Sequence record: NC_019717.1 | DNA from: Enterobacteria phage HK225 | DNA length: 45,366 nt | Direction: 5' to 3' (one strand) | Shown: piece by piece, positions 21,789 to 25,853 of the stretch | Layout: every line of letters begins with the position of its first letter | How positions within the stretch are numbered: the stretch's first letter is position 1 | Notes under the pieces: model-generated | What the model was told of the DNA's origin: nothing | Database searches by the model: none | Seen by the model: the letters and a program-made list of their open reading frames with translations, nothing else | Position numbers and translations under genes: made by a program

Positions 21789-22088
21789 ATGCCTCGTCAA
21801 CCGGATATTCGTGCTGCTTTTATTGCGGCCATACAGCAAAACCCGAAGGGCTATCTCTGTCTGCATACAGACAAGTTCATCGCTGAACTGCAGGAGAGGA
21901 ACTGGCATTTCAGTCAGGCGGATGCAAATACATGGATCGAGCGATACCAGCCGGACTTCGCCGATAAGACGACAAACGAAAGCGAGAACCGGTACTGGAT
22001 CCTGCGTAACATGGGGAGGGTTCTGAGGAGTTATCTTGCGATGCGCTATAGGTTTGCCCCATCCCTCCCAAACCAACCTTTTTTATAA
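21789..22088 (+). CDS. hypothetical protein, divergent from dinI
   Basis: 99-aa ORF with GAGG-type SD; begins 24 nt after the LexA box. Confidence 0.45.
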   Translation: MPRQPDIRAAFIAAIQQNPKGYLCLHTDKFIAELQERNWHFSQADANTWIERYQPDFADKTTNESENRYWILRNMGRVLRSYLAMRYRFAPSLPNQPFL

Positions 22089-22147
22089 CCATCAAAAATC
22101 TGGTGATGCTTCGCCGTTTCTCCTGTTTTCATAACAGGAGAAATCCC

Positions 22148-22696
22148 ATGATTTACGGTTATGCCCGAGTATCAACAAACCACCAGGACACTGAATTGCA
22201 ACTAACGGCGCTCAAGTCAGCGGGTTGTGAGAAAATTTTTGAAGAGCATGCCAGCGGGAGGAAATCGAATCGGCCGGTTCTAAAACGGCTGATCGCCACT
22301 ATGCAGCCGGGGGATGAACTGGTGGTCTGGAAGCTGGACAGGATAGGCCGCAACGTTCTGCATGCGCTGTTGATGTTCCAGCAGTTACAGGAAAAGGGTA
22401 TCAACTTCCGCAGTATTACCGATGGCGTGGATCTCAAAACAGCCAGCGGCCGCTATAACTTTCGTAACATCCTTTCCGCAGCACAATATGAATCTGATCT
22501 TAATAGCGAACGTACCTTAGCAGGGCTGGCCGTAGCCAGGGCAAAAGGGCGAGTTGGTGGTCGCAGGCCTAAGTTCACGGATGAGCAATGGCGGGAAATG
22601 GGGGAGCGGATGGCAATCGGTGAATCACGACAAAGCGTATCAAAAACGTATGGAGTAGGGCTCTCAACTCTGTATAAAAAGTTTCCAGCTAGCTGA
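22148..22696 (+). CDS. serine recombinase, DNA invertase (Hin/Gin/Pin family)
   Basis: ATG at 22148 after AGGAGA; MIYGYARVSTNHQD catalytic-Ser N-terminus, VVWKLDRIGRN, C-terminal HTH ending GLSTLYKKFPAS. Confidence 0.85.
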   Translation: MIYGYARVSTNHQDTELQLTALKSAGCEKIFEEHASGRKSNRPVLKRLIATMQPGDELVVWKLDRIGRNVLHALLMFQQLQEKGINFRSITDGVDLKTASGRYNFRNILSAAQYESDLNSERTLAGLAVARAKGRVGGRRPKFTDEQWREMGERMAIGESRQSVSKTYGVGLSTLYKKFPAS

Positions 22697-22716
22697 TAAC
22701 GGGAAAGAAACAGAGA

Positions 22717-22760
22717 AGGGCACAAATATTGTGTACTTTAATGTGCCCTTTAATTTATTG
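22717..22760 (+). terminator. hairpin with T-rich tail after the invertase
   Basis: AGGGCACA-N17-TGTGCCCT stem followed by TTAATTTATT; loop contains a TGTGTAC motif. Confidence 0.45.
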
Positions 22761-23015
22761 ATTGGTGGTTGAATTGTCCGTAACTTTTTGATTTAAGTTC
22801 AAATTTCTAATAAATTAGAACACTTTCTTAAATTGTCATTTGGCATATTACGAACAATTCCGCGTAAAAACGTTCTGTTACGCTAAACCCTTATCCAGCA
22901 GGCTTTCAAGGATGTAAACCATAACACTCTGCGAACTAGTGTTACATTGCGTGTAGCTTTGAGTGGGCAACTTTGTGTACACTTTTGTGTACCCAAAAAC
23001 AAAAATGTGTACCCA
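22720..23015. other. candidate attP region with TGTGTAC repeats
   Basis: AT-rich non-coding region upstream of int; TGTGTAC at about 22731, 22975, 22987 and 23007; contiguous phage DNA on both sides. Confidence 0.35.
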
Positions 23016-23019
23016 TTCA

Positions 23020-24213
23020 ATGATCACCGACACAAAGCTCAGGAAGGCGCTCGGCAAGAAAAGAGATGATATCGAGATTATTTCTGATTCGCACGGGCTC
23101 AACGCCAGAATCAGCCAGGCCGGAAAAATATCATTTTTCTATCGGTATCGCTGGGCCGGTAAAGCGGTAAAACTCAATGTTGGTGATTATCCTGCAATGA
23201 GTATCACCCAGGCAAGAGAACGTCGCCAACAATTCAGAAACTGGTTAACTGAGGGACTGGATCCGCGAGAGCAGGTGAAGCTGGATAAGCAGACCCGACA
23301 GGAAGCGATGTCCGTTGCCGAAGCGTTCAATTACTGGATTGAAAGGCACTGTATCGCTAACGGGCTAGTTAAAGTCGATTACTATCGCCAGGTGTTTGAG
23401 AAACATATCGCCGAACCGATGAAGAATGTCAAAGTCGATAACACAGCGAAAATGCACTGGATCAACGTCTTCGATTCTATAGAAAGCAGGGTGATGGCTC
23501 ATTACATGCTTTCGCTGTGCAAACGGGCGTTTAGGTTCTGCGTTAACAGAAGTGTGATCGCCTCAAACCCACTCGAGGGATTACTGCCATCTGATGTCGG
23601 GCAAAAGCCTAAAAAGAGAACTCGCAGGATGGACGATGACGATCTGCGCAAAATCTATCAGTGGTTGAAAAGCCATATGTCGATAGAGTCCGTTTTCCTG
23701 GTGAAATTTATTATGCTTACCGGATGCCGTACGGCTGAGATTCGACTTAGTGAGAGATCATGGTTTCGATTGGATGATAATGAGTGGGTCGTGCCTGCGG
23801 GCAGTTATAAAACTCGGGTACATATTAGAAGGGGACTCTCAGACGCCGCCGTTAACCTGGTCAGAAATCACCTCAAGAAAATAAACACCAATCACCTGGT
23901 GACTTCACAACGTAAAATTGATGGCGGGATCAAAGATTCGCCCGTTCATTCACCTGTGGCATCCAATTACGCCCGTTCTATTTGGAATGGAACAGGTATG
24001 GCAGAGTGGTCGCTTCATGATATGAGGCGGACGATAGCCACAAATCTCTCTGAGTTAGGTTGCCCGCCGCACGTAATTGAAAAGCTGCTCGGGCATCAGA
24101 TGGTGGGGGTTATGGCGCATTACAACCTTCATGACTATATCGATGATCAGAAACACTGGCTCCGCGTTTGGCAGAGCCATCTTGAAGAGATCATCGGAGA
24201 GCCCTTCAGTTAA
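23020..24213 (+). CDS. int: tyrosine integrase (P4-like family)
   Basis: track ORF starts at GTG 22963; [11 protein letters not shown]-terminus is typical of P4-type integrases; catalytic-region motifs HDMRRT and LLGH...HY; start could also be ATG 23005. Confidence 0.85.
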
Positions 24214-24452
24214 TTTATCTTCTTTTTATCCTCCCACTCTTTGATTGACTCAGAGCGCCAGCGGTTAGGGTTGCCGGGCCAGTCAGGGGGTGGGAACGGG
24301 CATACGAAGCCCCGAGGCATTGTGTCTGCACTTTGCCATGACCAAAGGGTTTTGCGTGAAATTTTGTAGCGACTGGTCAGGTCTGACGTTACCAAAATAT
24401 CATCCATAGCTCTCTCCAGTTGCCCGTTCGGGCCATTCAAAATCTTTTTCAA
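24210..24452 (-). CDS. xis: excisionase-like / AlpA-type small DNA-binding protein
   Basis: 80-aa ORF convergent with int and overlapping its stop; FPPP...W motif recalled from excisionases paired with P4-family integrases. Confidence 0.5.
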
Positions 24453-24729: not shown

Positions 24730-25842
24730 TCAGGCCACGTATTCCGGTTTCATATCCGCCAGGGTGATGCTGAATTGATCGTGCAGTTCATCGCCTAAGT
24801 GACGCTTTGAAGATGCAAGCATGCGCTCGGCTTCAGCGAACCGTTCGGATGCATGCGGCTCGTCGGGCTGGGGCAGGGATTTAATAGCCTCCTCAACCTT
24901 GTTGCGTGCATCCACTAGGTAATAACGCTTTACGGCTTTGTTTTTCAGCTCGGTGAATAGTGCGGATCCCAGCGTAGCTTTCGCCGTTTCAATGTCGGCA
25001 CGCAGCGATTTGGCGCTATCCACGTCCTGAGCAGATTCGATGCGTTCGCGGAAATCATCGGCAAGAGAGTCGACATTTACCGACGATTCCTGTGCGCTTT
25101 GCGTGGTTGTGACGGTGTCACCTGAGATATCAGCCAGGCTAACGCGTTGCGGCGTTGGGTTGATCTCTTTTTCTGTGCGCTGTTCAATCTCATCAGGGGT
25201 GTACACACCAAGAACAACTGCAGGGCAATACAGGCGCGCCCAGTATTTGAGTGCCAGATAAGCGATCTGCTGTTTCGGGTTTGATACCCAAAGTGGAGAA
25301 TTACGTGTGATTACGCTGGAGAGGAAAACAGGCTCTCCCCAGGTGATATCACTTTCACCGCGAATAACGGCACCTACCCGTACCGACAGTCCTTGTTCAT
25401 CAGCACTTTCCCAACCGCGTACCATTTCTTTCTTGTCGTACGTCCCGCCACCTTTCGCAGGCTTTTTAACGGTTATCTCGCGGCTGCTGGCACATTTCGA
25501 CCAGTCGCCCTCGTACTCATAGTGAAAGCGGCCAACGATGGCGTTTGAGCTGGAGATCACCGCATTAACCAGTTGCGCTTCGTATCCCAGGACACCGTTA
25601 ACCAGGTGCGTCTTTTGCGCCACGGCGTAAGGGTTCATACCCCACTGCATCGCCTGCATGATGATGGCCATGCAGTCTGCCGGATTGCCGCGGAGGTGCT
25701 CAGGCACCGTTACGGCTGCCTGTGCCATCAACCCGGCGACAGACTGAAGCTGGGTTAAAGCCTGCACGTTGAAAATGGCATTGCTGGCTGAGATCGTGTT
25801 TGGAGTCTGCTGTTCAGCGGTTACGATATTCGTGTTTTCCAT
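24730..25842 (-). CDS. recT: RecT-family single-strand annealing protein
   Basis: track ORF has three consecutive Met; the third (25842) has the best SD spacing; core GNPADCMAIIMQAMQWGMNPY resembles RecT. Confidence 0.8.
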   Translation of the reverse strand: MENTNIVTAEQQTPNTISASNAIFNVQALTQLQSVAGLMAQAAVTVPEHLRGNPADCMAIIMQAMQWGMNPYAVAQKTHLVNGVLGYEAQLVNAVISSSNAIVGRFHYEYEGDWSKCASSREITVKKPAKGGGTYDKKEMVRGWESADEQGLSVRVGAVIRGESDITWGEPVFLSSVITRNSPLWVSNPKQQIAYLALKYWARLYCPAVVLGVYTPDEIEQRTEKEINPTPQRVSLADISGDTVTTTQSAQESSVNVDSLADDFRERIESAQDVDSAKSLRADIETAKATLGSALFTELKNKAVKRYYLVDARNKVEEAIKSLPQPDEPHASERFAEAERMLASSKRHLGDELHDQFSITLADMKPEYVA

Positions 25843-25853
25843 CATCATTCCCC

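Follow-up and report, generated by a model that had tools for sequence, protein, structure and literature searches.

The non-coding DNA in front of the integrase gene of phage HK225 carries four copies of the heptamer TGTGTAC, which raises the question of what these repeats are and which protein reads them. The earlier note had placed three of the copies just before the int start and one in the loop of an upstream hairpin, and a scan of the sequence bore this out; all four were on the + strand, with start-to-start spacings of 244, 12 and 20 nt, and the repeat unit extended to 12 nt (AATATTGTGTAC, AACTTTGTGTAC, ACTTTTGTGTAC and AAAAATGTGTAC). When both strands of the whole 45,366-bp stretch of DNA analyzed here (the window) were searched, TGTGTAC was found seven times against 3.2 expected, a count that is unremarkable and not significant by itself, and the three remaining copies (25201, 30130 and 33650) were isolated and occurred at the chance rate. 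In contrast, the presence of four copies within 303 bp corresponded to a Poisson P of ~8e-9, and 300 dinucleotide shuffles gave at most three copies in any 303-bp span, a number that was reached once. The motif was unrelated to the attachment core described below and was present on both sides of this core in a single orientation.

We found that the window represents a complete lambdoid genome of the phi80/mEp237 type, which is colinear along its whole length with mEp237 and phi80. Outside the attP-int-xis module the window is a mosaic, for which mEp237 is the closest relative (~95% identity), while the stretch from 22065 to 24300 aligned with phi80, mEp237 and mEpX1 at 98-99% identity and was unbroken across the site. 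The repeat-bearing interval lies between the stop codon of a pin-like invertase gene (22696) and the int ATG (23020), and it is intergenic if int encodes 397 aa. By these alignments, the interval 22717-23019 is the attP of a phi80-type phage. The suggestion that contiguous phage DNA on both sides reflects the vegetative configuration agreed with the unbroken alignment to phi80, mEp237 and mEpX1 and with the splitting of the same DNA in E. coli lysogens; attP is intact and in vegetative order in the window. The object itself is already known as the phi80 attP-int-xis module, which has been sequenced and annotated, and this work is said to go back to Leong et al. in 1985/1986. The phi80 and mEp237 records annotate several features of the region (Table 1). 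The core features given in the phi80-type GenBank records disagree by 3 bp, and none of the three phi80-type records X04051, JX871397 and mEp237 has an annotation for the TGTGTAC repeats.

The common core was defined by comparing attP with both prophage junctions in strain ECCRA-119 and with the empty attB of MG1655, where the sequence reads ...TCTATTCAGAACACTTTCTTAAATGGTTTCACTG.... The attP DNA was split in 191 E. coli genomes, with the breakpoint at 22814-22836; on the int side of the lysogen the match ran from 22814 on and abutted kch, and on the pin side it ran up to 22836 and abutted yciI. Strand exchange with the host falls inside the 17-bp core. The comparison with the attL and attR of integrated prophages, which had been proposed as a check, thus placed the core inside the interval instead of downstream of xis. 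This core is complementary to the final codons of yciI (...F K K V F stop), and the yciI frame is kept in the lysogen, where the stop codon changes from TGA to TAA. A core derived from a tRNA or tmRNA was ruled out; ARAGORN found no tRNA genes in the window, and the core coincides with the 3' end of yciI. No tRNA-derived core had been recognized by eye in the earlier note because none is present.

Table 1. Features of the attP-int-xis region of HK225 in window coordinates.
Feature	Position	Strand	Details
Hairpin 3' of the pin-like invertase gene	22715-22751	+	9-10 bp stem, 17-nt loop, T-rich run after
P1, candidate arm-type site TTGTGTACTTT	22730-22736	+	~87 bp left of core
Tentative degenerate second P-arm copy, TGTGCCC	22742-22748	+	12 bp after P1; weak PWM score (3.9)
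IHF consensus match AATCAATAAATTA	22751-22763	-	
IHF consensus match AATCAAAAAGTTA	22781-22793	-	Annotated IHF site in phi80 (JX871397)
Common core AGAACACTTTCTTAAAT	22817-22833		17 bp; identical in attP, attB, attL and attR
Attachment site AGAACACTTTCTTAAAT, mEp237 annotation	22817-22833		
attP core, JX871397 annotation	22820-22836		
Core-proximal P' block	22838-22885		Conserved in the phi80 clade (alignment); candidate core-type Int, Xis or IHF binding
Conserved block AGTGTTACATTGCGTGTAGCTTTGAGT	22938-22964	+	Includes '-35' of the JX871397 'possible promoter pI'
P'1, candidate arm-type site TTTGTGTACACT	22974-22980	+	Overlaps annotated -10
-10 (TACACT) of 'possible promoter pI', JX871397 annotation	22978-22983		
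P'2, candidate arm-type site TTTGTGTACCCA	22986-22992	+	12 bp after P'1
P'3, candidate arm-type site AATGTGTACCCA	23006-23012	+	8 nt before int ATG; contains in-frame ATG 23005
int, tyrosine integrase	23020-24213	+	397 aa; 100% identical to phi80 Int
xis, excisionase	24210-24407	-	65 aa; convergent with int, overlaps int 3' end
int and convergent xis, JX871397 annotation			

In the left (P) arm, the hairpin is formed by pairing of 22715/6-22724 with 22742-22750/1, so that its loop holds the first TGTGTAC and its 3' stem holds a degenerate second copy. A simple terminator scan of 22600-23100 detected no canonical terminator and did not score the hairpin as one. The degenerate copy was recognized through the far arm of Kp4864-1, a prophage-derived Klebsiella phage record. 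The other end of this record contains CAATGTGTACTTATATGTGTCC ~85 nt from the cut core, which is the same core distance as that of P1; ATGTGTACTTxxATGTGxCC is the sole long conserved block of that P arm, and the second copy there reads TGTGTCC. The hairpin stem has decayed in Kp4864-1, and the repeat has been kept. Recombination sites of the pin/hix type were ruled out as an identity for the repeats, which are kept in relatives without pin. Two consensus sites for IHF sit between the left repeats and the core. Exact matches to WATCAANNNNTTR occurred four times in the window, and two of these were in the P arm; in the P' arm, no IHF consensus was found at up to one mismatch.

In the right (P') arm, the core-proximal conserved block contains TTACGAACAATTC, the inverted partner of 22771-22783. 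The three P' copies are located 140-190 bp to the right of the core and occupy positions -46 to -8 counted from the int ATG. Because int points away from the core, the int-side arm constitutes its promoter and leader region. The host neighbor in the lysogen, kch, is divergent from int, and int would therefore have to be transcribed from within the P' arm. A simple scan of 22600-23100 revealed no sigma-70 consensus promoter, and a lambda-type cII box (TTGCN6TTGC) was not found upstream of int at up to one mismatch; the only annotated candidate -10, described as 'possible', falls within P'1.

The description of the integrase as P4-type was supported by its domain composition. Pfam Arm-DNA-bind_3 (PF13356, formerly DUF4102) matched Int residues 2-87 with an E-value of 1e-18, and the catalytic domain (PF00589, Phage_integrase) matched residues 203-371 with an E-value of 8e-17. 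The N-terminus also matched the solved arm-binding domains 3jtz/3rmp (E 8e-10) and 3ju0 (E 7e-9), and residues R237, H333, R336 and Y368 were invariant in the alignment. Homologues of xis occupy the same position in relatives as in HK225.

To what extent the repeats are a property of this type of integrase was evident from its relatives. Two to three copies were kept just upstream of int in Kp4864-1 (Int 77% identical), in Klebsiella and Stx2a prophages beside sapC (Int 52%), and in Oslo, Pm34 and SEN34 (Int 34%), despite the divergence of the surrounding non-coding DNA. A scan of one genome per species yielded 79 int loci with Int identities of 27-87%, and nearly all of these, from many genera, showed the repeat pattern. 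Across the 75 loci that were counted as distinct, the 100 nt directly in front of int had a GTAC density of 2.58 per 100 nt, compared with 0.20-0.28 in three control regions, an enrichment of ~10-fold; two or more copies were present in 71 of the 75, and the commonest spacings were 12 nt (30 cases) and 11 nt (23 cases). A PWM trained on relatives only was scored over the whole window on either strand, and its top three matches were at 22973 (18.6), 22985 (17.0) and 23005 (15.6), with a score of 12.0 at 22729. The family consensus was T-G-T/A-GTAC-A-C-A. This consensus, TGTGTACACA, is nearly palindromic, and the orientation of some sites is ambiguous; such symmetry is unusual and was unexpected for a monomeric arm-binding domain.

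Copies on the far arm were also observed in relatives. Besides the int-proximal copies, the intact attP regions of Oslo and Pm34 contained perfect tandem pairs with a 12-bp spacing at 250-280 nt upstream of int, and the intact attP of SEN34 contained tandem copies of the variant (G/A)AGTACA on both arms. Among the IMG/VR loci, the copy at -287 was found only in true phage genomes, and loci in the prophage state had host DNA at this position. For the sapC-side relatives LC727874, MK416022 and MK448234, the second prophage junction was not found, as the records end short or contain no recognizable junction repeat. Within the sapC-side clade, the arm-binding domain was 70-74% identical versus 45-48% for the core-binding and catalytic parts, which makes it the best conserved part of Int; this pattern fits an arm word that may have been retained while target specificity changed. 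In three Moraxella prophages, a PHAST 'att site' with the sequence TGTGTACATAATTGTGTACATA has been reported at both ends (PMC4619438). The integrases of these prophages were among the tblastn relatives of Int, and an identical sequence at both ends would be the expected product of tandem arm repeats on both arms.

Taken together, these comparisons make it likely that the TGTGTAC repeats are arm-type sites for the N-terminal domain of Int in a phi80-type attP, and that they probably also act as autoregulatory operators of int. The Arm-DNA-bind_3 domain would read the repeats, of which the P arm would offer one good and one degenerate site ~85-95 bp from the core, with the two IHF consensus sites in between, and the P' arm would offer P'1-P'3, spaced 12 and 20 bp. 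Following the lambda/P4 paradigm, Int would bridge the arm sites through its N-terminal domain and the core through its C-terminal domains, and bending of the DNA by IHF would produce an intasome capable of integration and, with Xis, of excision. After integration, the three P' sites would stay with int at the kch-side junction, and the P site would pass to the yciI-side junction. Since the P' sites cover the leader and the sole annotated candidate -10, Int should repress its own gene; Int bound to these sites may act on int transcription or initiation, by analogy with KplE1 IntS and P4 Int. The proposal in the earlier note that the repeats are arm-type or int regulatory sites is thus strongly supported by comparison, given their occurrence on both arms and in distant relatives and the P4 architecture. 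In the literature searched, we found neither binding or footprint data for phi80 Int nor a description of phi80 arm-type sites.

The only serious alternative is that the repeats bind excisionase (Xis/RDF), in which case head-to-tail tandem sites spaced at ~11-12 bp would serve to load filaments of Xis, and these would bend the arm and repress int; we consider this unlikely. A tandem spacing of 11-12 bp is typical of excisionase sites, as known for lambda Xis, and is shared by the repeats. In KplE1, moreover, the TorI excisionase has its sites on the arm next to int, where they overlap with the int promoter (PMC2951348). A homologue of phi80 Xis was present with int in all loci at an Int identity of at least 44%. 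In most loci an Xis-like gene travels together with int, and co-occurrence therefore cannot separate Int from excisionase as the reader of the motif. The distribution of the copies is more informative, as they are found on both arms, which is a requirement for arm-type Int sites, whereas excisionase sites are normally restricted to one arm. Furthermore, the motif stays the same in Pm34 and Oslo, phages in which the small ORF convergent with int is at most faintly Xis-like (faint AlpA/Xis-like ORFs were seen in Pm34 and SEN34), no other module of Int is as well conserved as the arm-binding domain, and the annotation of P4 describes the corresponding repeats as arm repeats. It is rather improbable that the int-proximal copies are purely an operator for int transcription or translation, bound by Int or another factor, with the copy at 22730 as an unrelated feature of the pin hairpin. 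The three copies do overlap the annotated candidate -10 and a stretch of the leader that reaches to within 8 nt of the ATG, the third copy in the 52% clade is located between a GGAG Shine-Dalgarno sequence and a TTG start, and the copy at 22730 is single and sits in a hairpin loop. However, the P-arm copy of Kp4864-1 is at the same core distance despite the decayed stem, tandem P-arm copies occur as perfect pairs in Oslo and Pm34 and as variants in SEN34, the P4 arm repeats are on both arms, and TGTGTACATAATTGTGTACATA is found at both ends of the Moraxella prophages (PMC4619438).

Whether the repeats are instead translated depends on the int start, which differs among the records: 416 aa from GTG 22963 in X04051, 402 aa from ATG 23005 in JX871397, or 397 aa. 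The two longer versions would put three copies or one copy, respectively, within the annotated CDS, as codons of a longer Int N-terminus. No stop interrupts the frame from 22963 on, and the third copy contains an in-frame ATG, as it does in Kp4864-1 and in the 81-87% clade. In spite of this, the homologues and the Pfam arm domain all align from the M at 23020, and in E. coli lysogens the Int called by PGAP has 397 aa. The reading frame is the same for the copies at 22974 and 22986 and different for that at 23006; an in-frame stop was present within 60 nt upstream of the aligned Int N-terminus in 39 of 72 relative loci, and 55 of 160 copies in relatives were upstream of an in-frame stop. For these reasons, the starts at 22963 and 23005 are probably too long, and a coding origin of the repeats is very improbable; the earlier note had named their inclusion in translated int of homologs as a finding that would speak against it, and the frames and upstream stops indicated otherwise. 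A five-residue extension of Int from ATG 23005 is conceivable and would be compatible with a role of the third copy as a DNA site. Finally, a chance cluster in AT-rich intergenic DNA is practically ruled out, even though the window-wide count is not significant alone, as none of the 300 shuffles contained four copies in 303 bp and both the motif and its layout are conserved in ~75 loci from several genera.

If TGTGTAC is indeed the word read by the arm-binding domain of Int, its identification and its conservation across a wide integrase clade are an incremental addition, absent from the records and literature examined. We cautiously lean towards a broader view, in which (T)GTGTAC(A) in tandem at 11-12 bp is the conserved arm-site code of a DUF4102 integrase clade that is kept while the specificity for core and attB (yciI, sapC and others) changes. 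This putative clade is marked by an I(S/T)F(F/Q)(Y/F)R(Y/F)R(W/F) strand, spans 27-100% identity and includes Enterobacterales, Moraxella, Shewanella and some MAGs; no description of a conserved arm-site code for it was found in the literature searched. If this view is correct, the arm-binding module and its DNA code would evolve as a unit apart from target choice, and the motif could help to locate the two ends of a prophage and to design or swap attP arms. As a cheap computational marker, it could indicate the ends of prophages with this integrase clade, and the Moraxella study would have taken the motif for the att site itself (PMC4619438). There is also a practical side, as phi80 Int/attP is routinely used to insert single copies into the E. 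coli chromosome and phi80 is a recurrent laboratory contaminant. The attP fragment needed would extend from ~22725 to 23015, roughly 290 bp, with three arm-site candidates in the int leader, and the dosage of Int is predicted to feed back on int expression.

Compared with known systems, the biology proposed here varies the lambda/P4 theme in an expected way and holds no surprise. The phi80 module (X04051, JX871397), mEp237 and mEpX1 are essentially the same DNA, with the same core, IHF site, int orientation and convergent xis. The lambda attP contains the arm sites P1, P2 and P'1-P'3, of which the P' sites form a tandem array, and the IHF sites H1, H2 and H'. The HK225 attP follows the same logic of a core, sites on both arms, IHF sites and a heterobivalent Int; at the sequence level it has the features of a heterobivalent tyrosine-integrase attP of the lambda paradigm, in which arm binding is predicted. 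The two systems differ in the arm-binding domain, which is lambda-type in lambda and Arm-DNA-bind_3 in HK225, and in the direction of transcription: in lambda, int is read from pL/pI in the direction of attP and is subject to sib retroregulation, whereas HK225 int points away from attP and converges with xis.

The attP of P4, reportedly described by Pierson & Kahn in 1987, has a core formed by the 3' end of tRNA-Leu. P4 (NC_001609), a satellite phage and the type member for this kind of integrase N-domain, shares with HK225 the type of N-terminal arm-binding domain and an int gene transcribed away from attP. Five units are annotated in P4 as 'attP arm sequence repeat', namely a tandem pair of 12-nt units in either arm and one further unit at the start of int, and the distances from the core are comparable (~65-85 bp in the P arm and ~115-160 bp in the P' arm). 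The P4 motif is (T/A)xGGGGGCA(T/C) as opposed to TGTGTAC in HK225, the unit next to int has an inverted orientation in P4 and a direct one in HK225, and the second left-arm copy is degenerate in HK225, whereas P4 has tandem pairs on both arms. Integration into a tRNA gene 3' end, a feature of the P4 cluster, was not observed for HK225, whose core is the yciI 3' end. The DUF4102 N-domain defines the IntSXT subgroup, which also uses the flanks of protein-coding genes (PMC8138268); the yciI core therefore excludes HK225 from the P4 cluster but not from this subgroup, with whose sequence-level features the HK225 int module agrees. Regarding regulation, negative autoregulation of P4 Int was reported by Piazzolla et al. 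2006, as referred to in PMC2951348, and KplE1 IntS and other E. coli integrases have been shown to control their own genes via attL sites overlapping the int promoter (PMC2951348). In KplE1, which is of the HK620/Sf6 type, the IntS arm sites overlap the -10 and repression has been measured (Panis et al. 2010, PMC2951348). The KplE1 P' motif contains TAAA, and binding and repression were demonstrated by experiment in that system. HK225 also differs in that its attB is not a tRNA gene. As in HK225, int of KplE1 faces away from the core and the P' arm serves as the int promoter and leader, and a similar autoregulation would, by analogy, be expected in HK225.

The core of attP was found to be the 3' end of a host protein gene, yciI (window, 22815-22833; L005, 1616-1637; L178, 4570-4590). 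On integration, the YciI reading frame (…FKKVF) is kept, the stop codon changes from TGA to a TAA that is supplied by the phage, and the native hairpin downstream of yciI is cut off from the gene. The block common to the window, MG1655 attB and both prophage junctions was AGAACACTTTCTTAAAT, and the annotation of the core in mEp237 agrees with this block. In contrast, the "attP core" feature of the phi80 record JX871397, ACACTTTCTTAAATTGT, is offset 3 bp rightward from the sequence actually common with attB and the junctions.

Repeats were also observed around the core. In particular, a 13-nt inverted repeat lies on either side of it, AATTGTC is repeated at its right boundary, and TTACG/CGTAA words are repeated in the P' block nearest the core, a block that does not vary within the phi80 clade. 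The inverted repeat and these words are candidates for core-type sites of Int or for sites of Xis.

Coordinates in the window of features at and beyond attP
Feature	Position	Strand	Remarks
Pin/Hin-type serine invertase	22103-22696		Resolvase + HTH_7; directly left of attP
Inverted repeat GAATTGTCCGTAA / TTACGAACAATTC, AATTGTC and TTACG/CGTAA words	22771-22783, 22828-22837, 22848-22860, 22864-22883		around the core
Core together with the end of yciI	22815-22833
Shared block AGAACACTTTCTTAAAT	22817-22833
JX871397 core feature ACACTTTCTTAAATTGT	22820-22836
Degenerate arm copy GCGAACTAGTG	about 22930-22940
recT-like gene	24730-25848	-
Arm-like copy GGGTGTACACAC	25197-25208		within recT-like gene

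Upon comparison with relatives showing ~85% Int identity (L018-L020 and L136-L140, among other loci), we found a fourth int-proximal copy of the TGTGTAC arm motif, TTGAGTACAAGT, at -86 from int, which is degenerate in HK225. The recT-like gene contains an isolated, near-palindromic copy that scored high (12.8) with a weight matrix trained only on relatives and is probably due to chance. The PHAST "att site" of the Moraxella prophages Mcat9, Mcat27 and Mcat28, TGTGTACATAATTGTGTACATA (PMC4619438), is the arm motif twice in tandem, which suggests that, for this clade of integrases, automated att prediction confuses arm repeats with the site of crossover. SEN34-type arm repeats were present at the enterobacterial-type int locus of CACSKA010000001.1, titled "Chryseobacterium sp. 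18061", which may be a mislabelled or contaminated assembly.

The start of int differs among records, with 416 aa from GTG 22963 (X04051), 402 aa from ATG 23005 (JX871397) and 397 aa (PGAP). Homology and the Pfam domain favour the start at 23020, before which no recognisable Shine-Dalgarno sequence was found; ATG 23005 falls within the third repeat. The annotated length of the invertase varies (172, 182 or 197 aa). Next to its phi80 counterpart are fragments of tail-fibre pseudogenes together with short inverted repeats, and this neighbourhood may be what is left of a switch that changed tail fibres by inversion.

Over its structural half (1-22000), the window was ~90% identical to N15, a linear plasmid-prophage, and 95% identical to mEp237, while phi80 itself covers only ~48% of that half. 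HK225 belongs to the phi80 group as a mosaic and is not phi80 itself.
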